DNA of 64,000 bases from a virus, in IMG/VR virus record IMGVR_UViG_3300003690_000002, positions 122,399-186,398 of that record, one strand, 5' to 3'. Both the position numbers and the translations under genes were made by a program. Every line of letters starts with the position of its first letter. Position 1 is the first letter of the stretch. Shown here one piece after another: positions 2,930 to 15,993 of the stretch. The notes under the pieces were generated by a model that saw only the letters and a list, made by a program, of their open reading frames with translations, did no database searches and was not told the origin of the DNA.

Positions 2930-2945
2930 TATTTTTTACTCTCTC

Positions 2946-3197
2946 TTATTTGGTACATCGTGCTTTTGTCAAACTAAACACGCTGTACTGATTATGAATG
3001 TTTATTGGCGAATATCCGTACTGACGATTATAATCGTATGGTGCGGGTCCCGACCACTCTACAAACACTCGTCCACTACCAATTCCATATGGATTGGTTT
3101 CAATTTTATAAATGAGTCCTATATGTGCTTTGTCTCTAGTGGCAAATTTCGCTGTTATCAAGTCTCCAACTTGTGGCCATCTATTATTGTCGCTCAC
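2946..3197 (-). CDS. GDLV family small protein
   Basis: QVGDLI; probable GTG start at 3197 inside a 14-nt overlap with the upstream gene. Confidence 0.7.
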   Translation of the reverse strand: MSDNNRWPQVGDLITAKFATRDKAHIGLIYKIETNPYGIGSGRVFVEWSGPAPYDYNRQYGYSPINIHNQYSVFSLTKARCTK

Positions 3198-3381
3198 TGA
3201 CAACCTCCACGTCTCGTGGGCTTTCCCAAGTCATCGTTTTTCCAATGTGCGCTGGCTTTGCAGGCCAACTGATTTTATAACGATAAACACCAGTGGAAAC
3301 CTGTTCTTTTGTATGTATTAAGCCTGTACCTTCATAAGTGCTGGCATGAGGTTTGTAAATAACTAAATCACCGACTTGCAT
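3184..3381 (-). CDS. GDLV family small protein
   Basis: MQVGDLV...EVVSERQ. Confidence 0.8.
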   Translation of the reverse strand: MQVGDLVIYKPHASTYEGTGLIHTKEQVSTGVYRYKISWPAKPAHIGKTMTWESPRDVEVVSERQ

Positions 3382-3553
3382 TTAGTACCTCAAGCAGTTC
3401 TCCACGACAATACAGTGTGGAGTCGCGACCATCCTTTGTCCACAAAACTTTGTAATCACCGTTGTTCGTTTGTTCTGGTGTTTGGAGCACTAAACCATGC
3501 GCGGCATATGGCTGGTGATGCACTTTATACTTTACTAAATCACCGACTTGCAT
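3368..3553 (-). CDS. GDLV family small protein
   Basis: MQVGDLV...EVLNASR. Confidence 0.8.
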   Translation of the reverse strand: MQVGDLVKYKVHHQPYAAHGLVLQTPEQTNNGDYKVLWTKDGRDSTLYCRGELLEVLNASR

Positions 3554-3710
3554 TGATAACCTCTATTTCACTGCTCCAGTGAGAACCTTGTGATCCGTCA
3601 TTCCATCGAATATGATGTAAAACTCCATCGCCGAGCGCCATTTTTGTAGTTTTATAAACTATTCCAATATATTTTCCCGAATTATGTTTCACTAAGTCAC
3701 CGGTTTGCAT
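3540..3710 (-). CDS. GDLV family small protein
   Basis: MQTGDLV...EVINASR; start corrected to the junction ATG at 3710. Confidence 0.8.
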   Translation of the reverse strand: MQTGDLVKHNSGKYIGIVYKTTKMALGDGVLHHIRWNDGSQGSHWSSEIEVINASR

Positions 3711-3864
3711 TAATAACTTCCAATTCGTCAACCCAACGATTGCCGACATGTCCATCCATCCACGAGATTGTGTACATTTTGTCTCCAAGATGATCCATCG
3801 CCAATTTCACGACTAAGCCAAGCATACCATTATTTTTGAACTTTACTAAATCACCGACTTGCAT
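3697..3864 (-). CDS. GDLV family small protein
   Basis: MQVGDLV...EVINANR; start corrected to 3864. Confidence 0.8.
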   Translation of the reverse strand: MQVGDLVKFKNNGMLGLVVKLAMDHLGDKMYTISWMDGHVGNRWVDELEVINANR

Positions 3865-4036
3865 TGATAACTTCCAAAGCACGTTCGTCAAGAAGACGTG
3901 CACGTCCATCCAAGAGGACGCGGACAATGTGGTCGCCGGTTGTACCCAGTCGGTCCCGTCCTATCACAACGCCAACTTTATGCCAAAGGGCACTAATCGT
4001 TCGCTTGTTGACTTTTACTAGATCACCGACTTTCAT
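3851..4036 (-). CDS. GDLV family small protein
   Basis: MKVGDLV...EVINASR. Confidence 0.8.
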   Translation of the reverse strand: MKVGDLVKVNKRTISALWHKVGVVIGRDRLGTTGDHIVRVLLDGRARLLDERALEVINASR

Positions 4037-4223
4037 TTACAACCTCTAAGTCTCGTTCCAATCGTCGAATCACGCGATTCTTACTATTACAAAGTTGAAT
4101 TTCGTGATACAAAATATCGTACTCGTTGGGTCGTGGCTCAACAGTTTTAAGAATCAATCCAACCATATCTGTTGGGACGCCGATACCGGCTCTCGTAATC
4201 TTAACTAAATTACCGGGCTTCAT
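4023..4223 (-). CDS. GDLV family small protein
   Basis: MKPGNLV...EVVNESR. Confidence 0.8.
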   Translation of the reverse strand: MKPGNLVKITRAGIGVPTDMVGLILKTVEPRPNEYDILYHEIQLCNSKNRVIRRLERDLEVVNESR

Positions 4224-4543
4224 ATAGCTACCTTTATTTTGATGTTCTCAATGTGCTTGCATTTTCTTCGAAAACCAAACCCAACGCAAGTACAACTCCA
4301 TGTGTCGCTAGCAGAGCGTTTAACGGTGTACTTATTCTTTTTTGATCCCTCAACCTCGAATGTTTCTTTCCGTGCGTTAGGGGTGCCTTTCTCGGGTTTA
4401 TAAGAAAGAATCCAGCGTACGTCATTGAGTGTTGTTCCTTTTGGAACTTCAATCCACGGCTGGTTGCCTGCGACGACGTACGTTTTACCCGAAGTCAGGC
4501 TATCAAAAATGGCTGGGTTTAATGTGCTTTTGACGCTAATCAT
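4220..4543 (-). CDS. SWIM-type zinc-finger protein
   Basis: WSCTCVGFGFRRKCKH = CxC-x(n)-CxH. Confidence 0.7.
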   Translation of the reverse strand: MISVKSTLNPAIFDSLTSGKTYVVAGNQPWIEVPKGTTLNDVRWILSYKPEKGTPNARKETFEVEGSKKNKYTVKRSASDTWSCTCVGFGFRRKCKHIENIKIKVAI

Positions 4544-4839
4544 TTGATTGACTTTCCTGATACTTTGCCCCAAACAGATGCGTTATAAAGCAAATGGTCC
4601 TCGACGCTGAAAAACTCGGTTTCTCCGGTAATCTCGCTCCAATTGTTTAGCAAGTCCTCGTCGTTGACGTCTTTGTAAGAATCGTCTTCCCAATCCTCAA
4701 GTGCGCCACGCGCCCATGCAGCAAGTTGCTTTCGCGCACCGTCTTCGGTTGTGTGGATGGAAATGTCTTGACCGTGTTTGTGGTCCCATTGAGCGACATA
4801 CACGGTTTCAGATGTTTTTGATTTTGGAATTACTGGCAT
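4540..4839 (-). CDS. hypothetical protein
   Basis: MPVIPKSK... start with GGAGG SD. Confidence 0.65.
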   Translation of the reverse strand: MPVIPKSKTSETVYVAQWDHKHGQDISIHTTEDGARKQLAAWARGALEDWEDDSYKDVNDEDLLNNWSEITGETEFFSVEDHLLYNASVWGKVSGKSIK

Positions 4840-4840
4840 G

Positions 4841-5302
4841 TTAATTATCCTCCGCGCAACCATTGGCGCATTGTTGTAAGACCAAAGTAGGATAGCCCAT
4901 GCCATCGGAAGCATAGTGATTGCGTACCGAAGCACCAATCAATCCACAGGCGTCACATACACCAATGCCATGCTCTGGGGGGCAATCCTCTGCCATAAAA
5001 TGCTGGAAACGCTCAGACCTAAGCTTATTCGCAGCTTCACGGTTGTCATACGATGACGCTAACTCGTAACAGCCTTCCGCAACAGCAACAGCAATCGAGG
5101 GCATGCCATTGGCAATTGCCTGAGTGGTGTTATAGGCAACACGCATCGTTGGCGTAACTTCGCGCCCATCCTGCAAGACTACGCGAGCTTCTTTCATCCA
5201 AGAACGTGCTGCACTGATGCGACGACCAGAACGAGCTTCAGCAACGACGGTTGCAGAGGGAGCGGGGAAAGCGGTTGTCATGTGATTAAGTCCTTTTGCC
5301 AT
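4841..5302 (-). CDS. hypothetical protein with C-terminal Cys motifs
   Basis: MAKGLNH... directly after the promoter at 5316-5344; CDAC...CANGC. Confidence 0.65.
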   Translation of the reverse strand: MAKGLNHMTTAFPAPSATVVAEARSGRRISAARSWMKEARVVLQDGREVTPTMRVAYNTTQAIANGMPSIAVAVAEGCYELASSYDNREAANKLRSERFQHFMAEDCPPEHGIGVCDACGLIGASVRNHYASDGMGYPTLVLQQCANGCAEDN

Positions 5303-5315
5303 TGTTTCTATATAC

Positions 5316-5344
5316 ATTATCTCATAAAAACAAGGATTTGTCAA
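5316..5344 (-). promoter_or_regulatory. sigma70-type early promoter
   Basis: TTGACA-17-GATAAT with extended -10. Confidence 0.8.
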
Positions 5345-5383
5345 GGATAAAGTGAAAAATTTTTTCGATTCGTGATTTCGATA

Positions 5384-5605
5384 TTAACTACATGCGGTGG
5401 GGTGCGACCAGTTTTCGTATTGCCAGTCGGAAATGAGTTCGTCTTTGCAAAGAGAATCGGTCCAGTTATTCCACGCTTCGCTACGGGCTGGAATGTCTTT
5501 GATACCGTCTTGTTCAAACTCTTTTTGAACTTGCGGAAGAATATTCTCGTTGAATTGTTCGACTGCTTCTTTCCAAGTAATTACGCTATAAAGATTGTTT
5601 GCCAT
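5384..5605 (-). CDS. small phage hypothetical protein
   Basis: MANNLY...WNNWTDSLCKD; AAGGG SD. Confidence 0.7.
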   Translation of the reverse strand: MANNLYSVITWKEAVEQFNENILPQVQKEFEQDGIKDIPARSEAWNNWTDSLCKDELISDWQYENWSHPTACS

Positions 5606-5626
5606 ATATTTTAACCCTTCTTCTTC

Positions 5627-5661
5627 AAAAAAAATGTGCGAGGTTCCCAACTTCCTCGCAC
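5627..5661 (-). terminator. intrinsic terminator
   Basis: 8-bp stem GTGCGAGG/CCTCGCAC followed by A-T8 on the minus strand. Confidence 0.75.
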
Positions 5662-5809
5662 TAAACACGACCTAAACGCTTACGCAACGACCTGACTAGT
5701 CGCAACCGGCATGCCACCCATTCGCTCCAACAGGACGCGCATTACAAGGTGCCCGGTGATTTAGACTAGCCAATCTCGCTCGTGTCTCCCACGAAAAGAA
5801 AATCCGCAT

Positions 5810-5882
5810 GGTCGGCATGAGCCTTTCGAACAACGACCTTGCGAATTTTTAAGAAAACCCGCGAGGTCGGCATGAGCCTTTC
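5810..5882. repeat. 18-bp direct repeat x2
   Basis: ggtcggcatgagcctttc at 5810-5827 and 5865-5882. Confidence 0.9.
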
Positions 5883-6066
5883 ATCCGTAATGGGAGTTGC
5901 ACCCATGCAGCAGGATACCACTCCCGCCGATTCTGCTCTGACTAAATAACGAGGTATCAGCCCGGTTTAGTCCTACGGCATATATTCTGAACATGCCAGT
6001 TTGGTACTCGCGGATTTTCAAAGAGCGAATCAAGAAATCGTTGATTTCTTTCTCCACTGTATATAT

Positions 6067-6095
6067 ATTATCTCATAAATTTAAGAATTTGTCAA
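6067..6095 (-). promoter_or_regulatory. sigma70-type early promoter
   Basis: TTGACA-17-GATAAT with extended -10. Confidence 0.8.
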
Positions 6096-6222
6096 TACTT
6101 TTTATTCTTTTTTTAATTCTTAAAAACAAGGAGTAAAAGAGCGAAGAAATACAGCAAACCCGATATTGCGCTAGCATACAAAATATCTTTTGTGAACCTG
6201 TTCATTTCTTTTGGGCTCTCTT

Positions 6223-6453
6223 TTATGACTTGCTTCCAACGCAAACAATTTCTGAATCTGTTTCAATCCAGACTCTTGCACCACAAGATAATGGTTTATC
6301 TGGTGAGTATATTACCTTACATGGTCCCATAATGATCGCTTCGTGGCAATAATCATTTGACTTATAAGTTTTGACCGCTATTACAGGCTCTCGTTCCCCA
6401 GTCTTATGATTGCGTCGAATTATATGTTGATTTATATGAACTTTCTTTTTCAA
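6223..6453 (-). CDS. conserved phage hypothetical protein
   Basis: VHINQHIIRRN...KPLSCGARVWIET, a motif I recognise from myovirus hypotheticals. Confidence 0.75.
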   Translation of the reverse strand: MKKKVHINQHIIRRNHKTGEREPVIAVKTYKSNDYCHEAIIMGPCKVIYSPDKPLSCGARVWIETDSEIVCVGSKS

Positions 6454-6463
6454 AACTGTCTCC

Positions 6464-6550
6464 TGGTGCCATCGGAGGGACTCGAACCCTCACATCCATA
6501 CGGATAACGGATTTTAAGTCCGTTGTGTCTGCCAATTCCACCACGATAGC
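6464..6550 (-). tRNA. tRNA-Leu(TAA)
   Basis: GCTATCG...D-loop TGG, anticodon loop CT-TAA-AA, long variable arm, GGTTCGAGTCC, encoded CCA. Confidence 0.93.
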
Positions 6551-6559
6551 AAAAAACCT

Positions 6560-6793
6560 CTACCATTCGTCTTCATTCTTTATTACAGAAAATGTATCAA
6601 AGACATCAACGTTTTTCACAGAATCTTTTTCGTGTTGAGTGATTGCCTCGGTAAGTTTTGTGGTAAGTTCGTTGATTACATAAATTCGATTTGGCACAAG
6701 CCTCAAATCGAGGTGCGCACCATTGTCACTGCGCCAACTAAGCACTTCCTCAATGATTTGTCTAATTTTCTTTTGATTAACCATCAATAGCAA
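6560..6793 (-). CDS. hypothetical protein
   Basis: 77-aa ORF overlapping the upstream stop. Confidence 0.55.
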   Translation of the reverse strand: MLLMVNQKKIRQIIEEVLSWRSDNGAHLDLRLVPNRIYVINELTTKLTEAITQHEKDSVKNVDVFDTFSVIKNEDEW

Positions 6794-8015
6794 TAATCCT
6801 TTCGCTAGTTTGGAAATAAGGGCGATGAGCGTAATATTTTGTTGTCATCCACATTCGTTGACATTTAGAAGCTTTAGGCTTTGGAGCCATCAAGTCTGTC
6901 AAAATAATGTGACCATCAAAACCATGCTTGTTCACATATTCGGTAGGAGCATCGAAGCATGTTCCACCATGCATGACACGTTCAGTTTTGTGATTCTGCC
7001 CCTTTTTCCACTCGTAAATAAGCGATTCCTCAACTCGGGTATCGAAAGGAACAACAGTAAACGAAGCGAGTTTAGAAAGCTTGCTCAACTCGCTAAAAAA
7101 CGATGCGAGCATATCATCCCCTACAGAACCACTTTGGTCAATGCTGATTGCAATACGGGCAACACGCTTAACCTTCTTACCAGGATGAATGTAACGATAT
7201 CGTTTATTGATTCGCTTTACTGTGCTAGATTTGTTCGAGCGCGTAGAAGTTTTTACAAAGTATCGAAGTACTTTGCGCCAATCAATATGGGTTTGAATTC
7301 GTTCAAGAATCTCTCTTCGACACGAAGCAGGCACGGTACCCCAATTAGATGCGTTTTGAGCCTCTTGTGCTGCCTTTTTTACAAAGTCCTTAATACGTTC
7401 CTTAGCAATCTCGCCCGTTGTAGAATCGACTTTGCCCCAACCTTCGTGAGAGTCGAACTGTTCACTGGAATCGTTATTGCTACTGCTGCTAGATCCGTTT
7501 TCACCGTCACCACTGTCACCAGATTTATTTTCTTCTCCATCGTTACGTTTTTGTCCTTTGTTCTTCTTTTCGAACTGTTCATCTTTTTTCAAACGCTTAA
7601 GATAAGCTTCTGCGCTTAGACCGACTGGGTATTCCTCAAATCGATCAACACCTGGCACAAGACAACCATCAGGCAATTCGCCAATCAAATGCGAATTAAT
7701 AGCAAGGTCTGTTGCAAAGTTCCAAATTGTATGATTGACTGCATCTGGTTTTCGAGAAGTGACATGTTCAAAAATCAAATGATAAAACTCATGTTTGAGT
7801 ACCCCAAGACGTTGAACATCAGAAAGTTTTTCAAAAAACTCTGGATTGTACAACATTTCAAAATGTGCTGTCTCGGGATTAACTCGTACTCCCGCAGTTG
7901 GAATTGTAGTAGTAGCACGCTTGTTAATACGACGAGACAATGAAGCAAAAAACGGCTCTTGCATAAGCAATCGCGCCGTGTGTATGTTCAAATCGAAATT
8001 ACTAGTTTTACTCAT
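6777..8015 (-). CDS. DUF2201-type metallopeptidase + VWA-like domain protein
   Basis: HEFYH (HExxH), Ser/Gly/Asp linker, IDQSGS MIDAS-like motif, GGT...TD; adjacent to an AAA ATPase. Confidence 0.85.
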   Translation of the reverse strand: MSKTSNFDLNIHTARLLMQEPFFASLSRRINKRATTTIPTAGVRVNPETAHFEMLYNPEFFEKLSDVQRLGVLKHEFYHLIFEHVTSRKPDAVNHTIWNFATDLAINSHLIGELPDGCLVPGVDRFEEYPVGLSAEAYLKRLKKDEQFEKKNKGQKRNDGEENKSGDSGDGENGSSSSSNNDSSEQFDSHEGWGKVDSTTGEIAKERIKDFVKKAAQEAQNASNWGTVPASCRREILERIQTHIDWRKVLRYFVKTSTRSNKSSTVKRINKRYRYIHPGKKVKRVARIAISIDQSGSVGDDMLASFFSELSKLSKLASFTVVPFDTRVEESLIYEWKKGQNHKTERVMHGGTCFDAPTEYVNKHGFDGHIILTDLMAPKPKASKCQRMWMTTKYYAHRPYFQTSERIIAIDG

Positions 8016-8021
8016 GTCTTA

Positions 8022-8050
8022 ATTATCTCAAATTTAGGCGAGTTTGTCAA
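8022..8050 (-). promoter_or_regulatory. sigma70-type early promoter
   Basis: TTGACA-17-GATAAT with extended -10. Confidence 0.8.
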
Positions 8051-8070
8051 GTATATTTTAAACTATAATT

Positions 8071-8100
8071 AAAAAAGAGAGGGGATCTCTCCCCTCTCTT
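8071..8100 (-). terminator. intrinsic terminator
   Basis: Stem AAGAGAGGGGA/TCCCCTCTCTT running into a T tract, just after the AAA gene stop. Confidence 0.8.
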
Positions 8101-8109
8101 GCGAAGCTG

Positions 8110-9198
8110 TTATTCCTCGTCTTCAGAGGAATTTCCGGTTAGAATTTGAACTAGGTAGTCAGATACTCGAATTCCATCCGTTGCTTTTGCTTGGTGGAGT
8201 GAAGTGGTATTCTCAAGATCCCCAGCACCCAAAACCGTCCACAGTTTCATAGCAACTTCAGAAGGAAGTGTTACAAAATAATTTGATAGATTTTGAATTT
8301 GCTCATCAGACAATTTTTCTTTAAAAATTTCTTTGGCTTCCATTTTTTCAACTAACGCACTATGCGCATTGATATCAAAATCAGATGTTTTTTCAAGCTT
8401 TCCTTCGTCAATGACTTCTTCAACAGTAACTTGATGCTCATAATTAGCGACAAAATCGTTAAATGCCACTGCTGCTTCAAAACCGACATAAGCAGTTGAA
8501 AGATTGAAAAGCGTGGACGAAGCTTCAGCTAGCAAATCAGCCCTTGCAAGACAGTCATTGAGCCGTTTCCAAGAACGTCGCGAAGGATATACTTTGTTTG
8601 GCTCATAATCGCCATCGTGCTCCAAATGATTACGATTTTGATTAATGAAATCCCAAATCAAAGAATCAACATTTTCTTTACCCCAAGACAACCAATCTTC
8701 AATTGATGGCTCAACATCAAATACAACATAGCGGTCAAGTTCCGCAGGGTCCATTTCGTTAACTTGATATTGATCACCATGCTCGCCGCCATTAATGGCA
8801 GCAAAAAGGATCGTATCAGGATGAAGATAGTGACCATTCAATTTGCGAGAATCAGTAAGTTCAAAGATACCTTGTCGAACTTCTGTTGTTGCTCGGTCGA
8901 CTTCGTCTAGAAAAAGAACAACCGGTTCCGTACATGCTGTTACAAACCAATCCGGGGGATTAAATGCAGTAGCTTGCGTACCATTAATATCAACGCCTTC
9001 AGGGCGAGGTAGACCAACTAGATCACCTTCTGTCATTTGACTGGCACGGCGTTCGACAACAGGGATTTGTGCCTCGTTGGCGAATTGATATACAACCTCA
9101 GATTTACCAACCCCGTGACGACCGCGAATCATTACTGGTTTACGATCATCAACAACAAAGGAGACACACTCAAGAAACGTTTTGAAATCAATTGCCAT
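8110..9198 (-). CDS. MoxR-like AAA+ ATPase
   Basis: Walker A GRHGVGKS, Walker B LFLDE, AAIN, DPAELDR. Confidence 0.88.
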   Translation of the reverse strand: MAIDFKTFLECVSFVVDDRKPVMIRGRHGVGKSEVVYQFANEAQIPVVERRASQMTEGDLVGLPRPEGVDINGTQATAFNPPDWFVTACTEPVVLFLDEVDRATTEVRQGIFELTDSRKLNGHYLHPDTILFAAINGGEHGDQYQVNEMDPAELDRYVVFDVEPSIEDWLSWGKENVDSLIWDFINQNRNHLEHDGDYEPNKVYPSRRSWKRLNDCLARADLLAEASSTLFNLSTAYVGFEAAVAFNDFVANYEHQVTVEEVIDEGKLEKTSDFDINAHSALVEKMEAKEIFKEKLSDEQIQNLSNYFVTLPSEVAMKLWTVLGAGDLENTTSLHQAKATDGIRVSDYLVQILTGNSSEDEE

Positions 9199-9233
9199 GT
9201 TTCTATTATCCTTTTTTACTTGTTTCTATATGT

Positions 9234-9262: not shown

Positions 9263-9280
9263 CAACTTTTTTATCTTTTT

Positions 9281-9949
9281 TTACCAGGGAAGTGCTTCAG
9301 TTTTAAGAATGTAGCGACGAATGTAGCTCATGTTATTCGACTTCAACTCTGCGTCAATTTCGCTCAGTGTTGCTTCGTCCGTGCTCTCCAACCAACCGCA
9401 AGGGACTTGCGCGGTGACGAGACGACACGGGATAGTACCGCGAATTTCTACGCGACGTGGGTTGACGGTACTGCGTTCCTTTGAACCGTCCACATTTGCA
9501 ACACGGAGACATGATGCGTTAGGAACACCAACACCGTTTTCATCAACGATAACGCGCTGTGCATTGATAACGGTCCAGTTCACACTTTCTACCAGTCCCA
9601 AACCTTTACCATTGTAATAAGTTTCATACTCAACGAGCGCGCCGACACCGATACCGCAACTTTTCAACCAGGTAAGGGCTTTTTCTCGTGCGGTTCGATT
9701 TTTCTGCATAAATACGCCTTGGTCTTGTTTCGCTTCGGAACACGTTTTGCGGTTGTGGCCTTCATTCTCGCAATATCCACAAGTGCGCTTGCTTCGCCGC
9801 TGTTTCTTCTCGAAATAGTTTGTAGCGCGATAATCATCTGGATTCTCATCCAATCGTTTTTGCATTTCTGCTTTAAGTTTAGGACAGCCGCTGCGATTGT
9901 GACCTTTGTCGTAACAATTTGAACATCTAACCGTTCCATTCCAACTCAT
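9281..9949 (-). CDS. double CCHC zinc-knuckle protein
   Basis: CSNCYDKGHNRSGC and CGYCENEGHNRKTC = Cx2Cx4Hx4C. Confidence 0.75.
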   Translation of the reverse strand: MSWNGTVRCSNCYDKGHNRSGCPKLKAEMQKRLDENPDDYRATNYFEKKQRRSKRTCGYCENEGHNRKTCSEAKQDQGVFMQKNRTAREKALTWLKSCGIGVGALVEYETYYNGKGLGLVESVNWTVINAQRVIVDENGVGVPNASCLRVANVDGSKERSTVNPRRVEIRGTIPCRLVTAQVPCGWLESTDEATLSEIDAELKSNNMSYIRRYILKTEALPW

Positions 9950-9979
9950 ATTTTCTCCGTGCTTCGAGTTTCTATGTGT

Positions 9980-10008
9980 ATTATCTCATAGATTTGAGGG
10001 TTTGTCAA
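9980..10008 (-). promoter_or_regulatory. sigma70-type early promoter
   Basis: TTGACA-17-GATAAT with extended -10. Confidence 0.8.
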
Positions 10009-10024
10009 GAAGTTTTTTATCTTT

Positions 10025-10210
10025 TCATGCTTTCGAAAGAACTTTTACATTAGTGCGACGGAGCCAAGAAAAGCCAATCAAACGACTATCATATCTAAAA
10101 GACTTCATCCAGTGAACCTTTATATCAATGCCACGACTTTCTTGAACAATTCCAATTTCTCCACGCCAATTTACAAGGTCGCCAATTCCTGGCTTAGAAG
10201 GGGACGTCAT
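10025..10210 (-). CDS. GDLV family small protein
   Basis: MTSPSKPGIGDLVNW; ATG at 10210 in a 17-nt overlap with the upstream gene. Confidence 0.7.
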   Translation of the reverse strand: MTSPSKPGIGDLVNWRGEIGIVQESRGIDIKVHWMKSFRYDSRLIGFSWLRRTNVKVLSKA

Positions 10211-10832
10211 TGGAAATCTCTTTTTTCTTTGGCTTTTTGTATGCTTTAAGGTGGCGTTCTTCACATTCAAATGGTTTTGCCAAACCGTAAGGCAAAACTT
10301 TGTATGGCTTCGCGCCCTTAGCTGCACTCTTAATAGTTCCGCCGGTTGAAATAACGACACAGGGTTTGTTACCAACAGTCACTCGATGAGTCCAATCAGC
10401 AGTGGCACGGAACATGACAGTAGAGCCAATTATATATTTTGGCGGAGCGTCATAAACAGCTAATACTTTCTTAGCATATTTATTTTCGCACATTTTTCGC
10501 CATGCTTTTTCAGAGGGAATAAATTGCACGTCTTCCACGATAGAAGATGCTAGTCTAGTAAAGTATCCGCTTTTCAAATAATATTCTGCACATATGTGAG
10601 CAATTCGACGCTTTTCGTCGTCGTACCTGTCTATCCATTGCTGGTGTGTGTCTTGCGCTTCTGACGAAAGCTTTTGTGTCTCGATTCTCGTAAGAATATT
10701 AATTTGCTTCGACGAAAGCTTTCCTCGCCTATTAAATTGTGTCTGTAGGCTCTCTAAGAATCCGCGTTCCCAATCAGAAAGAAGCTCGGGTTTCGCAATT
10801 GCGTTTGTCAATCTTTCGGACGTGTTGCTCAT
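10194..10832 (-). CDS. phage hypothetical protein
   Basis: WERGFLESL...LSSKQ motif; GGAG SD; follows a promoter. Confidence 0.75.
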   Translation of the reverse strand: MSNTSERLTNAIAKPELLSDWERGFLESLQTQFNRRGKLSSKQINILTRIETQKLSSEAQDTHQQWIDRYDDEKRRIAHICAEYYLKSGYFTRLASSIVEDVQFIPSEKAWRKMCENKYAKKVLAVYDAPPKYIIGSTVMFRATADWTHRVTVGNKPCVVISTGGTIKSAAKGAKPYKVLPYGLAKPFECEERHLKAYKKPKKKEISNDVPF

Positions 10833-10858
10833 GGAATCTCCACCCTTTGTTCACTATA

Positions 10859-10887
10859 ATTATCTCACAGATAAAAGAAAATGTCAA
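10859..10887 (-). promoter_or_regulatory. sigma70-type early promoter
   Basis: TTGACA-17-GATAAT with extended -10. Confidence 0.8.
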
Positions 10888-10893
10888 GCTTTT

Positions 10894-11049
10894 TTAAAGT
10901 TTTTTTAATGTGGTGGTGACTCTTTCTTTAAGAGTGCCATCATTTAATAAGATTGTTGCAATTTGATATGGAAATTGTAATGTTGGTTCACTAAGTTTTA
11001 TTATTACTGCTGTGTGACCTAAATAACTAACCAAGTTACCGACTTTCAT
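10894..11049 (-). CDS. GDLV family small protein (51 aa, not in track)
   Basis: Read by hand from the junction ATG: MKVGNLVSYLGHTAVIIKLSEPTLQFPYQIATILLNDGTLKERVTTTLKKL. Confidence 0.7.
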   Translation of the reverse strand: MKVGNLVSYLGHTAVIIKLSEPTLQFPYQIATILLNDGTLKERVTTTLKKL

Positions 11050-11260
11050 TTATTACCTCAAGGTCGGAGCGACACGAAGAGCTTGTGCGACCAACATGAA
11101 ACCAGTAGACGTAGTACGTTGTGCACCCGTCGTCGAAGAAGCAACTGCCCGCTTTGCCTAGACGAGTGATCACCCCGGTTCGTTCGCCTACAACATCATC
11201 GTCGTGGTCGCCAATTACGTCTTCTTTATTACGTGATTGTACTAAATCACCAACTTTCAT
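11036..11260 (-). CDS. GDLV family small protein
   Basis: MKVGDLV...EVINESR. Confidence 0.8.
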   Translation of the reverse strand: MKVGDLVQSRNKEDVIGDHDDDVVGERTGVITRLGKAGSCFFDDGCTTYYVYWFHVGRTSSSCRSDLEVINESR

Positions 11261-11482
11261 TTATACTTTCTTTCCTTTCTTTTTCTTCTTTGTTTTTCTT
11301 TTTGGAGCCTTAATTCCCAAAAAAGAAGTAGCTTTTTCCCAATCTAGGATTGCAAACTTATCAAATCCATCTTTTTTTATTTCCTCTATAAGATGATCCT
11401 TTACAATGCCATCCCAGTTTTTTTGCGGGTCTTTATAAATGACTATAAAAGGAAATTTCATATGTCGTAATATCACGCTCAT
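11261..11482 (-). CDS. hypothetical protein (non-GDLV cargo in the array)
   Basis: 73-aa ORF with a basic tail, starting 4 nt after a junction stop. Confidence 0.65.
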   Translation of the reverse strand: MSVILRHMKFPFIVIYKDPQKNWDGIVKDHLIEEIKKDGFDKFAILDWEKATSFLGIKAPKRKTKKKKKGKKV

Positions 11483-11485
11483 TTA

Positions 11486-11662
11486 TCACCGACTTTCACT
11501 GATAACCTCACACTTCTCTTCAATGTACTGTTTAGTAAACCACTGAATTCTTTGGTTAGGACATAAAACACCATACGGTGTACGACGTCTACGGTCTTTA
11601 ATCTTTACTATCAAACCCACTTCAGGGAACTCAGATTCTTTAATTAAATCACCGATTTTCAC
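11486..11662 (-). CDS. GDLV family small protein (58 aa, not in track)
   Basis: GTG start in a junction: (M)KIGDLIKESEFPEVGLIVKI...EVISESR. Confidence 0.75.
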   Translation of the reverse strand: MKIGDLIKESEFPEVGLIVKIKDRRRRTPYGVLCPNQRIQWFTKQYIEEKCEVISESR

Positions 11663-11837
11663 TAATCACCTCCAAAAAATTACCGCACATCCAGTTAATT
11701 TCACCGTCTAAGAAACAAACTTGGAACGGATAATCACGTCCTTTTGCGCGCTGTTCATAATCCACTTTGAGCACAATCCCCATTTCTGGTTTACGATTCA
11801 TTCGTGTCTTTTCCCTAACCAAGTCACCGACTTTCAT
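11649..11837 (-). CDS. GDLV family small protein
   Basis: MKVGDLV...EVISENR. Confidence 0.8.
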   Translation of the reverse strand: MKVGDLVREKTRMNRKPEMGIVLKVDYEQRAKGRDYPFQVCFLDGEINWMCGNFLEVISENR

Positions 11838-12105
11838 TGATTATCTCGACAAGTTCTCTGGGCCATTTGCGAGTTTCACCTTCGGTGTGCACCTGGATCC
11901 AATCCCGGTATCCAGATTCAATAACGAGTCCTATTTTATTGTTGCCACTGTTTTTGACTAGATCACCGGCTCTGAAAATATCATTGCCTCTTTCTTCTTC
12001 ATCATCGCGGCGATGTGCTTCTTCAACTTCGCGTTGTGAAGTTGCGTACCGCTCGTTTGCTTGGAGTTCCTTACAATTAGGACCCCAGCCTGGTGGTGCT
12101 CCCAT
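11824..12105 (-). CDS. GDLV family protein with N-terminal extension
   Basis: GGAG SD, MGAPPGW...FRAGDLVK...EIINESR; start corrected to 12105. Confidence 0.7.
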   Translation of the reverse strand: MGAPPGWGPNCKELQANERYATSQREVEEAHRRDDEEERGNDIFRAGDLVKNSGNNKIGLVIESGYRDWIQVHTEGETRKWPRELVEIINESR

Positions 12106-12115
12106 TATTTTTCTC

Positions 12116-12289
12116 CTATTCGCACCTACTGATAAGGTCCGCTTCATTCCACCACACAGTGCCACGTTTACCATTGTCGACCCAAATCACATCAAAGCAT
12201 GAATCATCAACCTGTGATGCCTCCCAAATTTGTATAACAATGCCTAGTGTGCCATGTTTTTTAAATTTTATCAAATCACCGACTTTCAT
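12116..12289 (-). CDS. GDLV family small protein (57 aa, not in track)
   Basis: Read by hand: MKVGDLIKFKKHGTLGIVIQIW...WWNEADLISRCE. Confidence 0.75.
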   Translation of the reverse strand: MKVGDLIKFKKHGTLGIVIQIWEASQVDDSCFDVIWVDNGKRGTVWWNEADLISRCE

Positions 12290-12482
12290 TGGCTTCTCTC
12301 AGCACCTTGAGTCTAAATTTTTGGATAAAATATCGCTCGCCTCGGTGTAATATCCATATGTCACTCGAAGTCCCGCCCTCGGCTACAATTAAGACCGGTG
12401 CGCGTGTCTGATATAATTCGCGCACCCAACTTGGCGCGCCCGTTGAAAGATTGCGAACTATCGCTAAGTCACCGGGCTTCAT
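12276..12482 (-). CDS. GDLV family small protein
   Basis: MKPGDLA...EANESR; start corrected to 12482. Confidence 0.75.
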   Translation of the reverse strand: MKPGDLAIVRNLSTGAPSWVRELYQTRAPVLIVAEGGTSSDIWILHRGERYFIQKFRLKVLREANESR

Positions 12483-12780
12483 TAACTGCCTCAATGCATG
12501 GTATACCAGCAGGCAATTCGCCTGAAACGACTCCACCATGCTTGGCGCAAACTAATGAAATTCTTTCCACGGGGACATATCCATAAACTGTGTTGGTTGG
12601 CTCATCTTCGTCCTCTGCCCATTTCAACAGCAAAGGTTCGAAGTGTGACGGAAATCCGACCTCGACCATGGTATATCTAGGGGCATTGTCAACTCGTGGG
12701 CTACAGTATGCGCCATGATTTGCCTGTACGCTCATTGCAAATCCATCCTTACAGATAATTTGTTCGTTTATTAGTTTCAT
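12469..12780 (-). CDS. conserved phage hypothetical protein carrying the junction tail
   Basis: CKDGFAMSVQA...YCSPR...EVGFP family; ends EAVNEAR. Confidence 0.75.
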   Translation of the reverse strand: MKLINEQIICKDGFAMSVQANHGAYCSPRVDNAPRYTMVEVGFPSHFEPLLLKWAEDEDEPTNTVYGYVPVERISLVCAKHGGVVSGELPAGIPCIEAVNEAR

Positions 12781-12962
12781 TCGCTTATGATCTCGACACA
12801 CGTTCTCTTTATCGCCACGGACGAGAAAAGATTATCAACAGAAGCCACCATTACATATTCATATTGTTTTGGGTGGCACACTATGGAATCATTACATAAA
12901 CCTGTAATAATAAATAATTTCTTTCTCGCTGGTTTTATCTTTACTAAATTTCCGATTTTCAC
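12777..12962 (-). CDS. GDLV family small protein
   Basis: GTG-KIGNLVKI...EIISE. Confidence 0.75.
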   Translation of the reverse strand: MKIGNLVKIKPARKKLFIITGLCNDSIVCHPKQYEYVMVASVDNLFSSVAIKRTCVEIISE

Positions 12963-13178
12963 TTATTTTGTCACGCTATTAACTATTTCTAAATCGTCAA
13001 TATGTTCGTTGTGGATTACGTTGTCTGACCATTTTACTCTAATCCATTTGCGACCGCAAATTTTAATCACCAAACCCGTCATATCTTGAAGCCCATGATC
13101 TGCGCCACATTGGGACGTATCCCATTTAATAATATGTGATACTAAATCGCCAACTTTTATTCTATTTTGCAATCGCAT
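12963..13178 (-). CDS. GDLV family small protein
   Basis: KVGDLV...GLVIK...DLEIV. Confidence 0.75.
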   Translation of the reverse strand: MRLQNRIKVGDLVSHIIKWDTSQCGADHGLQDMTGLVIKICGRKWIRVKWSDNVIHNEHIDDLEIVNSVTK

Positions 13179-13348
13179 AAACCTTCTTCAATTAGATATT
13201 TGGCAGTGCGTCCATAATGACCTTGCAATTGCCACGCTAAACCAGAATTAATCAATTCTTGAAAGAATTGAATTGTTTCGTCTTCATTCATTGTGCCATT
13301 TTCGTAACGAATAATCTTATCAACCATATTTATATCCTTTGAATCCAT
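13157..13348 (-). CDS. conserved phage hypothetical protein
   Basis: FQELINSGLAWQLQGHYGRTA motif; follows a promoter. Confidence 0.7.
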   Translation of the reverse strand: MDSKDINMVDKIIRYENGTMNEDETIQFFQELINSGLAWQLQGHYGRTAKYLIEEGLCDCKIE

Positions 13349-13357
13349 AGTGCTTAT

Positions 13358-13386
13358 ATCATAACATATAAGAACTAGTCTGTCAA
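13358..13386 (-). promoter_or_regulatory. sigma70-type promoter (variant)
   Basis: TTGACA-17-TATGAT. Confidence 0.6.
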
Positions 13387-13860
13387 GCCTTTCGTAATAA
13401 AGACTGACCATGTTGGGTAAGTATTTGCCGCGCCAGAAGAAAAGAAATCATCCAGCTTGCATTCGCGCAGCGCACCATTCTTCAAATTAAGAAAGATAAA
13501 CTTGAATTTATCTTTTAATGTCTCCGCATTATGTTTCTCTGAGCCTGTCAAAGTGAATCCTAATCCAGACCAGTTCTCCTTGACAAGCGACTTCCTTTTC
13601 CTACCAGCAGTTTTCAGTTCAAAAAGTGTAATGTTTTCAACTGCTTCTACCAATTGGTCTGGATTGTTAATTGTCTCTGCGTCAGATTCTTTAATCAAAT
13701 CAAAGCCTTTCACTCGTATTTCTTTTCCTACTTGCGCGTAGGCTTCGACAAGATTCTTTCTTTGTTGTGGGGTGGGACGAACAAAACCATGTTGGCGCAT
13801 TGTTGACCATGAGTCTCTCTCGCTCTGTTTTCCCATGTTGTAGCTTTTAGCGTTGTTCAT
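13375..13860 (-). CDS. putative PD-(D/E)xK-type nuclease
   Basis: N-terminal G...E, KGFDLI and FELKT fit the E...(P)D...ExK pattern. Confidence 0.45.
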   Translation of the reverse strand: MNNAKSYNMGKQSERDSWSTMRQHGFVRPTPQQRKNLVEAYAQVGKEIRVKGFDLIKESDAETINNPDQLVEAVENITLFELKTAGRKRKSLVKENWSGLGFTLTGSEKHNAETLKDKFKFIFLNLKNGALRECKLDDFFSSGAANTYPTWSVFITKGLTD

Positions 13861-13886
13861 TGCTATTCCTTTAAAGTTGTAGATTA

Positions 13887-14032
13887 TCAATGTTGAAGGA
13901 AAGTGCCGCGATTCTCGGTGCGTCACATCCCCAGGTTCCTTTTAATTAGCGAATGCTCTTCTTCAAGAGAACCATTGAAGTTTTACCCTTATAATCCCTA
14001 TGTAATGTTATTTTACTTTCCTTCAACATTGA
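13887..14032. repeat. 146-bp element with 18-bp perfect terminal inverted repeats
   Basis: tcaatgttgaaggaaagt (13887-13904) and actttccttcaacattga (14015-14032). Confidence 0.9.
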
Positions 14033-14034
14033 CG

Positions 14035-14535
14035 CTATTTTGCAAGACTTGCTAAAATCTTGTCTGAATGCCATTTAATTGTACCAGGTTTACATGTAAT
14101 TTTTTGCAATTTATTATTTACAAACACCGTTAACTCATTGCGACCAACAGCCGTAACAATAGCGTGCTTTTTATTAACTATAATCAAACTTCCAACTGGT
14201 GGCAAGCCTTTTTCTGTTAAGGAGCCGGGATCTTCAATTTGGAAAAAAGGACGTTTCTGCCCTGGAACCATGTAAAGTCCCCTTTTTTCATCTAGCACTA
14301 ATTTAGTGGTTTTAGGCTTACCATTCAGAGAAGAATATTGTTCGCCCTCAACATGCCATTGATTACCTTTCTTTATTGCTTTGGAAACCTTAAATACAAT
14401 TGTTCTGTATTTTGGATATGTACGATAAACTTCAAGCTCGCCTTGAGTATTCATCACCGCTTCTTCACGAGCCTTAGTTTTGCCACGTCCTAAACCAAAA
14501 CACCACTTTTTTAAAAGAAAGTCATTGGGTTTCAT
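14035..14535 (-). CDS. hypothetical protein
   Basis: 166-aa ORF after a promoter, AAGG SD. Confidence 0.7.
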   Translation of the reverse strand: MKPNDFLLKKWCFGLGRGKTKAREEAVMNTQGELEVYRTYPKYRTIVFKVSKAIKKGNQWHVEGEQYSSLNGKPKTTKLVLDEKRGLYMVPGQKRPFFQIEDPGSLTEKGLPPVGSLIIVNKKHAIVTAVGRNELTVFVNNKLQKITCKPGTIKWHSDKILASLAK

Positions 14536-14572
14536 AATATTTTCCTTTGTAAGAATTTTAAAGAATTAATTA

Positions 14573-14601
14573 ATGATAGCATTCTTTTTTTAGAATGTCA
14601 A
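14573..14601 (-). promoter_or_regulatory. sigma70-type promoter (variant)
   Basis: TTGACA-17-TATCAT. Confidence 0.55.
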
Positions 14602-14608
14602 GCGTTTT

Positions 14609-15103
14609 CTAGAAATAATACATAAATGATATATTGGGAATTGGAAGCACATAAAATCCTTTATTGCCAACTACGAATGAAATTGGAAATTCCATAGAAG
14701 CGCCCAAACCATTTCCAAATTTCCACATAACACCAATGCCGGGACCAAAAATAAAGTATTTTTCACTCTTTTTGAATGGTCCTGGGGAATAATATAAAAT
14801 ACTAGTCCCTGCTGTAACGTATGCTTCAGCCCATCTCTTTTCGTGAATAGTGATAAAAAAAGTTGTACCTCCGACAAAAAGCGCTTTATCTCCATCATAA
14901 TATGGCATAGCGCTTGCTTGAATCCCAAATGTTTGGGAAAATTTATATTTAAATGTTAAGCCTGCACCATGAGTTGGTCCAACAGCAATACCAATGCCAA
15001 ACCTATCTGGACAGTAATTTGGGGCACATTGATCATATGCGTATACATGTGCGGTCGATGCAAAAAATATAATTGCTATCAAAATATATATGTTTACTTT
15101 CAT
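14609..15103 (-). CDS. outer-membrane beta-barrel protein
   Basis: Signal peptide, alternating Gly/aromatic strands, C-terminal MYYF. Confidence 0.7.
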   Translation of the reverse strand: MKVNIYILIAIIFFASTAHVYAYDQCAPNYCPDRFGIGIAVGPTHGAGLTFKYKFSQTFGIQASAMPYYDGDKALFVGGTTFFITIHEKRWAEAYVTAGTSILYYSPGPFKKSEKYFIFGPGIGVMWKFGNGLGASMEFPISFVVGNKGFYVLPIPNISFMYYF

Positions 15104-15273
15104 TTTTCTTCTTTCTTGGAATTAATTATTTAGTTGCGACTTTAACGGCGATAGCATTGTATGCCGCTTTTGAAGCGCCAATAACAATATCACCAAAGAA
15201 ATGTCCTAAAAGAAATATTGCAATAATTACAATAAAATTTTTCATTTTAATAACCTCAAACCTTTTTATTTTT

Positions 15274-15501
15274 TTAATATTCTGAAAGCACTTCGCATTC
15301 AGATTCTAATAGTAAAAACTGTTTATTTTTATGTGTAGCTGGTTTTTGTGTAATTATAACATATTCTTTTATGTCAGAGCCTTTTTTTAACCTGCGCCAC
15401 ATTGGTATGTCCCATATTTCAATAATTATGCCCCTACCTTCGGGCGGAATCGACTTTAACTTCTTGTTTATTTTCCACTTTATTAAATCACCAATTTTCA
15501 T
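15274..15501 (-). CDS. GDLV family small protein
   Basis: MKIGDLIKW...EVLSEY. Confidence 0.75.
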   Translation of the reverse strand: MKIGDLIKWKINKKLKSIPPEGRGIIIEIWDIPMWRRLKKGSDIKEYVIITQKPATHKNKQFLLLESECEVLSEY

Positions 15502-15507
15502 ATATTC

Positions 15508-15536
15508 ATCATAACAAAAATTTAATAAAAAGTCAA
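15508..15536 (-). promoter_or_regulatory. sigma70-type promoter (variant)
   Basis: TTGACT-17-TATGAT. Confidence 0.5.
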
Positions 15537-15572
15537 GAATTTATATGACATTAATTATAAAAATATTTATTA

Positions 15573-15800
15573 TTAAACATTATCATGTTCAATAACCTCT
15601 AAATCTCGCTCAAGAAGCCATGTGGTTTTTTTACCAAGTTGAATTAAAACTGTTTTTTCGCGCTTGCCACCTGGATATTCAATGTGGCTTTCTTTGAGAA
15701 TTAAAACTGGCTTACCATAAGTCCAGATATCTATAATCAATTGGCTATCGCCAAAATCAAACGAAGGCTGTATAATTATTGCTAAATCACCGGGCTTCAC
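15573..15800 (-). CDS. GDLV family small protein
   Basis: GTG-KPGDLA...DLEVIE; starts in the junction core GTGAAGCCCGGTGA (15787-15800). Confidence 0.75.
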   Translation of the reverse strand: MKPGDLAIIIQPSFDFGDSQLIIDIWTYGKPVLILKESHIEYPGGKREKTVLIQLGKKTTWLLERDLEVIEHDNV

Positions 15801-15993
15801 TGATAACTTTAATCCATTTTTTGTTCATTGGCGCTGGTGGACTTGGATTATCTAGACACACCAACATATAACAGTCCTTGAGCGCATAGTAATTGCCAGG
15901 GTGTGGAGCATGTGGATTGTGCGCCTTTAAACTTGTTACGATGTATAGCCCAATAAAAGAAGGACCAACTTTTACTAAATTACCGATTTTCAT
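15787..15993 (-). CDS. GDLV family small protein
   Basis: MKIGNLV...KVISEAR. Confidence 0.75.
   Translation of the reverse strand: MKIGNLVKVGPSFIGLYIVTSLKAHNPHAPHPGNYYALKDCYMLVCLDNPSPPAPMNKKWIKVISEAR

Follow-up and report, generated by a model that had tools for sequence, protein, structure and literature searches.

Small barrel-like gene arrays in a marine phage and the two-frame coding joints that probably serve as their recombination sites

How does a large phage exchange its small accessory genes one at a time, and what would such an exchange site look like? The question is raised by a 186,398-bp marine phage genome, complete in that terminal repeats (DTR) close the sequence, and by the stretch of 64,000 nucleotides analysed here (the window). 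Small tandem genes in this window meet at a short joint that is read in two frames. A first-pass annotation had listed twelve gene ends that carry the joint; all twelve are confirmed, and the family behind them proved larger, with about 22 HMM-positive paralogs of 55-85 aa each.

Arrays, proteins and joints

The paralogs all lie within positions 2521-16550, and an HMM search of the rest of the 186,398-bp genome found no further member. They form three arrays, listed here with their joints and associated genes:

2521..4223, minus strand: array 1, eight family genes (ORFs, heads, HMM matches, alignment)
4023-4223, 3851-4036, 3697-3864, 3540-3710, 3368-3553 and 3184-3381, minus strand: family genes of array 1
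2946-3203 and 2521-2769, minus strand: degenerate family genes of array 1
10894..13178, minus strand: array 2, nine family genes and two embedded non-family genes (ORFs, heads, HMM)
12963-13178, 12777-12962, 12276-12482 and 12116-12289, minus strand: family genes of array 2
11824-12174, minus strand: N-terminally extended family gene of array 2
11649-11837, 11486-11662, 11036-11260 and 10894-11049, minus strand: family genes of array 2
15274..16550, minus strand: array 3, five family genes with a single 14-nt joint (ORFs, heads, HMM)
16326-16550, 16061-16297, 15787-15993, 15573-15800 and 15274-15501, minus strand: family genes of array 3
3368..3381, minus strand: joint core, 14-nt dual-frame overlap
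3540..3553, minus strand: joint core, 14 nt, within the 32-nt identity 3529-3560 (= 3840-3871)
3697..3710, minus strand: joint core, 14 nt, head MQTGD
3851..3864, minus strand: joint core, 14 nt, within the 32-nt identity 3840-3871
4023..4036, minus strand: joint core, 14 nt
11036..11049, minus strand: joint core, 14 nt, TAA variant with Gly-Asn codons GGT AAC
11479..11499, minus strand: orphan head V-K-V-G-D-K-stop, one of only 3 orphans among about 800 heads
11649..11662, minus strand: joint core, 14 nt, GTG start
11824..11837, minus strand: joint core, 14 nt
12276..12289, minus strand: joint core, 14 nt
12469..12482, minus strand: joint core, 14 nt, after a non-family gene
15787..15800, minus strand: joint core, 14 nt, GTG start, head VKPGD
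12469..12801, minus strand: non-family cargo gene, 110 aa (longest frame)
11261..11482, minus strand: non-family 73-aa gene after the orphan head
54647..55756, minus strand: RecA/UvsX-like recombinase gene, candidate driver
55878..56642, minus strand: gp32-like single-strand DNA-binding protein gene, candidate driver

Ten family members were scanned against Pfam and PHROG, where none scored above threshold, and the KOW domain (PF00467) did not match them in the Pfam scan at E up to 1. An AlphaFold2 model of a family protein (mean pLDDT 90.9) has five strands, and its best structural matches in the PDB are NdhS, the KOW domains of NusG/Spt5 and PWWP domains (TM 0.66-0.73, Foldseek E 0.01-0.07); the family profile searched against the PDB likewise points to the NusG KOW domain (E=0.015). 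A protein atlas search returned viral hypothetical clusters only, together with a weak lead to DsrB. The family is thus predicted to consist of small SH3/KOW-like beta-barrel proteins, clade-specific and expanded. Like the barrels of NusG/Spt5 KOW, NdhS and DsrB, its members have five predicted strands, about 60 aa and a G-D-x-V motif in the first strand; unlike these, they stand alone and have no above-threshold Pfam or PHROG model. The region found no match among GenBank phages by megablast, nor did one family member by tblastn. A cultured relative is lacking, since the AAA ATPase and the UvsX-like protein are at most 30-33% identical to those of cultured phages.

In all twelve joints (3368, 3540, 3697, 3851, 4023, 11036, 11486, 11649, 11824, 12276, 12469 and 15787) a minus-strand stop codon lies 14 nt inside the head of the next frame. 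The head type is (A/G)TG-(A/C)A(A/G)-(G/A/C)(T/C)C-GGT-(G/A)A, and the 14-nt out-of-frame overlap has the consensus ATGAAAGTCGGTGA, which reads N/S-E/A-S/A/N-R-stop in the tail frame and M/V-K/Q-V/I/P/T-G-D/N in the head frame. Allowing up to 3 mismatches, the 30-nt joint consensus has 6 matches, against 0.00 expected from 100 shuffles. The copy at 3184 is degenerate as noted before, about 7 codons separating the start codon from QVGDLI. At 11486 the 14-nt geometry stands, although what follows is an orphan head and the unrelated 73-aa gene in place of a family gene. This orphan head still provides the TGA of gene 11486-11662, and its own stop overlaps the ATG of gene 11261-11482, so that it looks like the scar left by a replaced gene body.

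Non-family genes take part in the same geometry. The gene end at 12469 carries a joint as annotated, but its 110-aa gene (likely start at ATG 12780, in an ATGA overlap) is no family member, and it ends in ..NEAR because the head of the next gene imposes those residues; its orthologs in relatives likewise lie within arrays. UvdE, 2-thiouracil-desulfurase-like, ClpP-like and Zn-knuckle genes, when followed by a family gene, have ..NESR as their last residues. The four-residue tail N/S-E/A-S-R is therefore a by-product of the next head, imposed equally on unrelated upstream genes. Conversely, in about ten unrelated cargo families the start codon is placed exactly 14 nt ahead of the stop of an upstream family gene, with TAA, TAG or TGA in non-homologous sequence; GIY-YIG, ferredoxin and SWIM genes in relatives' arrays have this geometry. 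A MazG-like identity for a 101-aa KLVRD-type cargo protein was dropped, as it has no Pfam match.

Constraint on the joint

Why are the joints so alike when the genes are not? The first-pass annotation had set conserved junctions against highly diverged gene bodies. The conservation is real, but most of it is predicted by the protein, ribosome-binding-site and stop constraints: the joint stacks the MKVGDLV head, the LEVI last strand, a ribosome-binding site in Glu-Val and a stop in Gly-Asp. Information content is 1.2-2 bits at the positions of the head, the ribosome-binding site and the stop. Recombinational homogenisation is not needed to explain joint identity, because the unconstrained wobble positions (-5, +17 and +20) carry only 0.07-0.6 bits; their variation rules out general gene conversion of the joints. 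The identity of 3529-3560 and 3840-3871 over 32 nt is exact, and this single pair is longer than site independence predicts (P=0.002), but resampling of real joints gives no clear excess (P=0.06).

Other signals were sought in the joint. RNAalifold on the 12 joints predicted 0 pairs at 0 kcal/mol, which rules out a conserved RNA structure and leaves no conserved pairing for attC-like inverted repeats. Family-family joints contain no promoter-like site; strong promoter-like sites (TTGACA-17-TG-GATAAT) are positioned between the arrays.

The first strand (M-K-V-G-D-L-V) and the last (L-E-V-I) are kept for the predicted fold. The Glu-Val codons of the last strand (GAGGT) double as the ribosome-binding site of the next gene, whose start codon falls in the Asn or Ser codon that follows, and the upstream stop comes from Gly-Asp codons (GGT GA.) in the next head, hence the fixed 14-nt overlap. 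Stacked in this way, the constraints hold a core of 17-30 nt near-invariant while gene bodies have diverged beyond recognition, so that the joints are the sole repeated DNA in the arrays. In the mechanism we propose, exchange from joint to joint would then delete, add, duplicate, swap or reorder whole genes, each time restoring ribosome-binding site, start, stop and overlap.

Probable gene exchange among relatives

Do relatives bear the marks of such exchange? A clade survey found 814 family domains in 86-87 loci of related marine phages, all comparison genomes being metagenome assemblies of uncultured populations. The genes are real, given ortholog dN/dS of 0.05-0.8. Of 680 standard heads, 441 have the 14-nt overlap, 328 after a family gene and 113 after other ORFs.

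Gene content is not fixed in these relatives: as had been proposed, close genomes differ by whole-gene indels and replacements with breakpoints inside joints. Three single-gene indels separate loci L079 and L081 (96% nt identity), and both ends of each lie in heads. L005 and L018 (91%) differ by one single-gene indel and one 516-nt multi-gene indel; in addition, one cassette is replaced between joints, one is duplicated, there is a tail-to-tail fusion, and gene order is permuted. Further cases come from L023/L028, L024/L030, L025/L030 and L035/L081. Exact direct repeats of 9-26 nt border the joint-bounded events, and a precise left/right hybrid joint is found in the shorter genome. Each event may be a gain or a loss, and all could be deletions. 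Adjacent cassettes also assort independently: where both members of an orthologous cassette pair (70-90% aa identity) have a joint-linked neighbour, that neighbour differs in 39 of 44 cases. One cassette has a lower synonymous divergence (pS 0.55) than its flanking core genes (0.80-0.84).

We therefore favour, with a probability of roughly 0.75, the reading that these are arrays of small barrels whose stacked-signal joints act as short-homology recombination sites that move whole genes. Anatomy, constraints, and the breakpoints and hybrid joints of relatives are direct observations; we infer that the phage's own machinery makes the exchanges, which may be incidental rather than selected. UvsX-like and gp32-like genes are present in the window genome and their products may act at the joints, although 9-26 nt of repeat is little length for UvsX strand invasion and makes strand annealing or template switching no less likely. 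The claim that the system is integrase-free is borne out in the complete genome, where neither the tyrosine integrase PF00589 (controls positive) nor the resolvase PF00239 has a match. GIY-YIG homing was rejected as a general driver: the domain occurs in some relatives' arrays as a bare catalytic domain, and has no match in this DTR-complete genome. An accordion of copy number, as first proposed, fails if it is meant to be recent. The paralogs are old, with best identities of 46-50% aa in the same genome and most pairs without a BLASTP match, which rules out recent in-situ duplication.

The strongest alternative, to which we would give somewhat less than an even chance, is that these are ordinary tandem paralogs in which selection for termination-reinitiation coupling, or for dosage control of early mini-proteins, maintains the 14-nt geometry, recombination being rare and irrelevant. 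It would fit the lack of homogenisation at free joint sites, the absence of promoter-like sites from family-family joints, and the GTG starts, found in 56% of these joints against about 18% elsewhere and tolerable under coupling; that some ten unrelated cargo families hold the exact geometry argues for selection on the geometry itself. This explanation nevertheless leaves unaccounted for both the coincidence of indel ends, replacement ends and hybrid joints with heads and the nearly always different neighbours of orthologous cassettes. It is also compatible with recombination at joints, and the 14-nt overlap may couple translation.

Could the clustering of breakpoints at joints be only apparent? 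Within -20..+25 of a head lie 26 of 70 breakpoints, against 2.6% expected (p=4e-23), a placement that is imprecise inside joints because alignment ends are ambiguous within any repeat; a conservative array-only null (24%) leaves a modest enrichment (p=0.011). Joints may also be over-represented through survivorship, since only in-register events leave viable operons. Random illegitimate indels, of which the single-gene ones survive and are then placed in the repeat by alignment, would be favoured by this weaker p value, by the keeping of frames and coupling in in-register events only, and by four clean indels away from joints in the same loci. We consider this explanation improbable: every joint-bounded event has exact repeats of 9-26 nt and a precise hybrid, the signature of repeat-mediated exchange rather than of selection among random ends, and one event at the tail half of a joint (GAGGTTATAAGTG, 13 nt) yields an in-frame E/F fusion.

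Assembly artefacts at short repeats (graph collapse, strain chimeras) would be a natural concern with uncultured populations, repeats being shared k-mers, but they are a very unlikely source of the differences. Seven contigs from different samples share the L001-type architecture and two carry the L023-type deletion, the family genes compared as nine orthologous pairs (L079/L081, L005/L018) are intact and show purifying selection, terminal repeats close the window genome, and the 9-26-nt repeats are shorter than the k-mers usual in final assembly. Finally, we give almost no credence to a programmed +1 frameshift (rare CGG Arg plus stop) that would fuse domains into multi-barrel proteins: the head frame is indeed +1 relative to the tail frame, and C is the last base of the third head codon in 82% of 14-nt overlaps (48-68% elsewhere), placing CGG before the stop in an AT-rich genome, but slippery motif and conserved RNA structure are both absent, CGG-stop also follows unrelated upstream genes, and a ribosome-binding site and a start codon belong to the head itself.

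Known systems and the wider meaning

The arrays are a coding-sequence analogue of PeSL shuffling in T4-type phages, where cassettes are bounded by intergenic promoter and terminator hairpins and mini-circles have been demonstrated (Arbiol et al. 2010, PMC2839356; Comeau et al. 2014, PMC4122927). Both systems belong to large T4-related phages and place short conserved repeats between early genes that are small and non-essential. In each, the repeats are where indels and replacements that distinguish close relatives have their ends, a site-specific recombinase is lacking, and the repeat restores expression signals to any gene landing behind it. In contrast to the PeSL, the joint is wholly coding, in two frames, has neither a sigma-70-like promoter nor a stem-loop terminator (RNAalifold, 12 joints), and restores translation rather than transcription signals. 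The real counterpart of the PeSL may be a separate early-promoter-like motif that is repeated between the arrays. In the lpl cluster of Staphylococcus aureus, a conserved mid-ORF segment makes an evolutionary unit that spans two adjacent genes (Tsuru and Kobayashi 2008, PMC2568036). That cluster shares with the arrays tandem paralogs with variable bodies, one conserved nucleotide segment as recombination site, and rearrangements among related genomes that map to it. In the phage this segment sits at the gene boundary, so that the unit is exactly one gene and unrelated genes are carried too.

Like integron cassettes, the array genes are promoterless single genes in one orientation that are gained, lost and reordered as units, with unrelated cargo. 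Integrons depend on IntI, a tyrosine recombinase, and on folded attC sites; the phage genome has no integrase match, and its joint shows no inverted-repeat structure and is coding, so the likeness is one of logic only. Poxvirus genomic accordions, reportedly described by Elde et al. in 2012 as recent amplification of near-identical copies under acute selection, likewise rely on recombination between repeats to change copy number in a viral gene array, whereas copies in the phage arrays are not near-identical, the paralogs sharing 46% aa identity or less and most being undetectable to each other.

A bolder and distinctly tentative reading is that the joint is a selected, portable "coding attachment site" across a whole clade of large marine phages, through which co-infecting genomes trade single early genes; the lower synonymous divergence of one cassette than of its flanking core genes hints at such lateral exchange, as does the 14-nt geometry in unrelated cargo. 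The pool would comprise hundreds of SH3/KOW-like mini-proteins together with GIY-YIG, ferredoxin, SWIM and Smr-like cargo, no dedicated recombinase would be needed, and products would be born with ribosome-binding site, start, stop and coupling, integron-like but in coding sequence.

The arrays define an uncharacterised family of SH3/KOW-like mini-proteins that stand alone, a large one with more than 800 copies in 87 loci of abundant marine phages. Annotators should beware that the C-terminal ..NESR of many unrelated proteins is dictated by the next gene. Phage mosaics rarely show the exchange sites of small accessory genes; here the site can be read directly, as a stretch of 17-30 nt held by two reading frames, a ribosome-binding site and a stop codon. 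Such a joint would be a universal splice point, any recombination product being an intact, translatable operon, and it widens the PeSL idea from transcription to translation signals. It thereby offers a testable model for the turnover of early "ORFan" repertoires in large lytic phages, which probably include host-takeover or anti-defence factors.

The arrays and the joint between their genes

The genome is complete (186,398 bp, direct terminal repeats, 35.7% G+C), the window forming its final 64 kb, and it carries three arrays of small genes within 2521-16550 on the minus strand:

2521-4223, minus strand: array 1
10894-13178, minus strand: array 2
15274-16550, minus strand: array 3
11479-11499, minus strand: orphan family head, six codons and then a stop

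The array products (55-85 aa) start M-(K/Q)-(V/I/P)-G-(D/N)-L-(V/I) and most finish (L)-E-V-(I/V)-(N/S)-(E/A)-S-R; a family HMM finds 22 members in the window, and a strict head search of the rest of the 186,398-bp genome returned zero family heads outside 2521-16550. An AlphaFold2 model from a 64-sequence alignment has five strands (mean pLDDT 90.9), its closest solved folds being NdhS, the KOW domains of NusG and Spt5, and PWWP domains (TM 0.66-0.73, Foldseek E 0.01-0.07). The family profile also matches the NusG KOW domain (E=0.015), and Pfam and PHROGs scans of the family gave nothing above threshold. Orthologs between close genomes have dN/dS values of 0.05-0.8 and are therefore real genes under selection; purifying selection acts on the nine family-gene pairs compared between close genomes, and all are intact. 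Within the window the paralogs are old: identity reaches 46-50% in the best pair, and most pairs have no BLASTP match.

Many successive genes meet in a joint, a 14-nt out-of-frame overlap in which the tail frame of the core reads AAT GAA AGT CGG TGA and the head frame, one base on, ATG AAA GTC GGT GA. The Gly-Asp (or Gly-Asn) codons in the next gene's head form the stop of the upstream gene. The first four codons of that next gene, read in the other frame, give the final four residues of the upstream protein. By direct sequence reading, the GAGGT that lies 6 bases upstream of the start codon encodes the Glu-Val of the last beta strand and matches a ribosome-binding site. No conserved RNA structure and no promoter was found within the joints.

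The conserved tail is a by-product of the next gene's head; in relatives, non-family genes end ..NESR whenever a family gene with the 14-nt frame offset follows. This holds for UvdE (Pfam 2e-59), a 2-thiouracil-desulfurase-like gene (2e-18), a Zn-knuckle gene, a DUF7417-like gene and a gene that we take, from its sequence alone, to be ClpP-like. Three such genes adjoin arrays in related marine phage loci (L057 and L041), their C-termini becoming ..NESR via the next family head:

L057:4942-5394: 2-thiouracil-desulfurase-like gene
L057:5732-6667: UvdE UV-endonuclease gene
L041:5141-5761: ClpP-like gene

The first-pass annotation had listed twelve gene ends, and all are indeed stop codons 14 nt inside the next head; the 32-nt identity between 3529-3560 and 3840-3871 is exact, and a 30-nt joint consensus gives 6 matches at ≤3 mismatches versus 0 in 100 shuffles. 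Its description of these ends as gene-to-gene joints needs correcting at two places: the end at 11486 precedes the orphan head, and the gene ending at 12469 lies outside the family. The orphan head supplies the upstream gene's stop and shares bases with the start codon (ATG) of an unrelated 73-aa gene; such heads are rare (3 among ~800 in 87 loci).

Whole-gene differences between relatives

Marine metagenomes and IMG/VR yielded 86 related loci, found by homology to gene 3184-3381 and to the AAA ATPase 8110-9198 (62-72% identical in the relatives); database comparisons found no close cultured phage. The relatives are metagenome assemblies, and some of their architectures recur in independent samples. 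Together with the window, the 87 loci hold 814 family domains, 1 to 28 per 21-kb locus. The 14-nt overlap occurs at 441 of the 680 heads with a standard start, the upstream gene being a family member in 328 and another ORF in 113, and at a further 81 heads the overlap is ATGA, 4 nt long. More than 120 IMG/VR stretches, a lower bound, contain the joint in a 25-nt version. IMG/VR labels one joint-bearing contig (L093, GVMAG-S-1030632-100_000001) as the MAG of a giant virus; the contig is probably a large phage that was binned wrongly.

Two loci that are ~96% identical (L079 and L081) are set apart by three indels of 144-181 nt, each of a single gene. In the genome without the gene, the flank upstream of the first head runs directly into the second gene's body, and the crossover falls within (A/G)TGAAAGTCGGTGATTT. 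A second pair (L005 and L018, ~91% identical) shows seven differences:

1: single-gene indel
2: multi-gene indel of 516 nt
3: one cassette (a single array gene between joints) in place of two, with heads at both boundaries
4: tail-to-tail exchange at GAGGTTATAAGTG, the body of one gene fused to the tail of the next
5: duplicated cassette
6: permuted gene order
7: C-terminus of a Zn-knuckle gene changed to ..NESR, a family gene having arrived behind it

Further joint-bounded events are found in L023/L028, L024/L030, L025/L030 and L035/L081; all events are counted unpolarised. Over 15 non-redundant pairs, 26/70 breakpoints lie within -20 to +25 nt of a head, a share that the survival of in-register events inflates, against 2.6% expected from locus composition (p=4e-23) and 24% under a deliberately harsh array-only null (p=0.011). 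Direct repeats of 9-26 nt, exactly identical, flank the extra DNA. Neighbour linkage between cassettes is almost absent: when orthologous cassettes from different genomes, both with a joint-linked neighbour, were compared at 70-90% aa identity, the neighbour differed in 39/44 comparisons, versus 5/13 at ≥90% identity. Comparison of the assemblies shows the joints to be the points of whole-gene gain, loss, swap and reordering among relatives. The first-pass annotation had named fixed gene content and order, or breakpoints outside the joints, as grounds for refuting it; the relatives show neither, and the shorter genomes carry precise hybrid joints.

Constraint on the joint and the 14-nt geometry

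In a position profile built on 294 non-redundant family-family joints, the head, ribosome-binding-site and stop positions carry 1.2-2 bits, versus only 0.07-0.6 bits at the positions free in both frames (the -5 Val, +17 Leu and +20 Val wobbles); joints are therefore not homogenised in general. Stacked coding and translation constraints conserve them. The earlier observation that gene bodies are diverged and joints are not is correct; constraint largely accounts for the joint identity, which was the third ground for refutation that the first-pass annotation had named, and of the accompanying interpretation it is the whole-gene events at joints that stand. Two signals are left over. C is the final base of the third head codon in 82% of 14-nt overlaps (family or non-family upstream) versus 48-68% otherwise. 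GTG starts make up 56% of family-family joints versus ~18% of family heads in other contexts (87 loci), because at that position the tail frame favours Ser (AGT) over Asn (AAT). One frame thereby imposes a weaker start codon on the other. The 32-nt identical pair exceeds the site-independent expectation (P=0.002) but does not clearly stand out when real joints are resampled (P=0.06); the sharp edges of the pair would fit a past exchange, without proving one. Cassette 3184-3381 (minus strand) is 82% identical in nucleotides to L001:10001-10198, versus 66-71% for the relatives' flanking AAA and DUF2201 genes (synonymous difference, pS, 0.55 versus 0.80-0.84), which would reflect either recent lateral exchange or unusual constraint.

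Arrays also hold unrelated genes whose start lies exactly 14 nt ahead of the stop of the family gene upstream; this stop is TAA, TAG or TGA in sequence non-homologous to the family head. The cargo includes GIY-YIG (Pfam 3e-18), ferredoxin (3e-16), a SWIM-finger protein (at threshold), a Smr-like protein (weak match), a KLVRD-type 101-aa protein and several ORFans. The GIY-YIG gene, a bare 86-aa catalytic domain with 14-nt overlaps on both sides, occurs in some relatives and has no match in the window's genome:

L001:3886-4146: GIY-YIG gene
L018:7460-7720: GIY-YIG gene
L079:4736-4996: GIY-YIG gene

Where a non-family gene follows a family gene (unique contexts), the overlap is 14 nt in 50, 4 nt in 29 and 1 nt in 8, about half of those 50 followers having diverged family-like heads on inspection, which makes the truly unrelated count smaller. 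This suggests either that the 14-nt geometry is itself favoured, with translational coupling as the simplest reason, or that cargo came in via joints.

Machinery, promoters and known systems

54647-55756: RecA/UvsX-like protein
55878-56642: gp32-like protein
14601, 13386, 10887, 10008, 9262, 8050, 6095 and 5344, minus strand: first hexamers of eight promoter-like sites
8071-8100, minus strand: strong intrinsic-terminator-like hairpin (11 pairs, then a T run) between the AAA ATPase and DUF2201 genes, the promoter-like site at 8050 following directly
6464-6550, minus strand: tRNA-Leu (anticodon TAA) between a DUF2201/VWA-like gene and array 1

An integrase-free process, as first proposed, agrees with the genome, in which no tyrosine integrase or serine recombinase was matched. 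The exchanges would be events of short-homology recombination, either as the phage undergoes recombination-dependent replication or during a mixed infection. Because the 9-26-nt repeats are short for strand invasion, and deletion between short direct repeats is on record for T4, UvsX-mediated crossover is no more likely than single-strand annealing or template switching.

A poxvirus-type accordion is ruled out by the age of the paralogs, and integrons have cassette logic alone in common with the joint arrays. In the S. aureus lpl cluster, tandem paralogs recombine at a conserved mid-gene segment and the evolving unit spans two genes (PMC2568036), versus one gene at the phage joints. Among described systems the nearest is the PeSL-mediated modular shuffling of T4-type phages, which shares its logic and comparative signature with the joints; the PeSL repeat is an intergenic promoter plus hairpin (PMC2839356, PMC4122927), whereas joints have neither of these defining features. 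This genome may have its true PeSL-like repeats in the eight promoter-like sites, which are near-identical and strong (TTGACA, 17 nt, TG-extended GATAAT or TATGAT/TATCAT; 11/12 matches), lie between arrays and ahead of non-family genes, and are likely early promoters. The array genes are probably early, because these repeated early-promoter-like sites precede them. A limited literature search turned up no account of exchange at a dual-frame stop/start joint; the joint arrays are a further form of the already known modular shuffling of phages.
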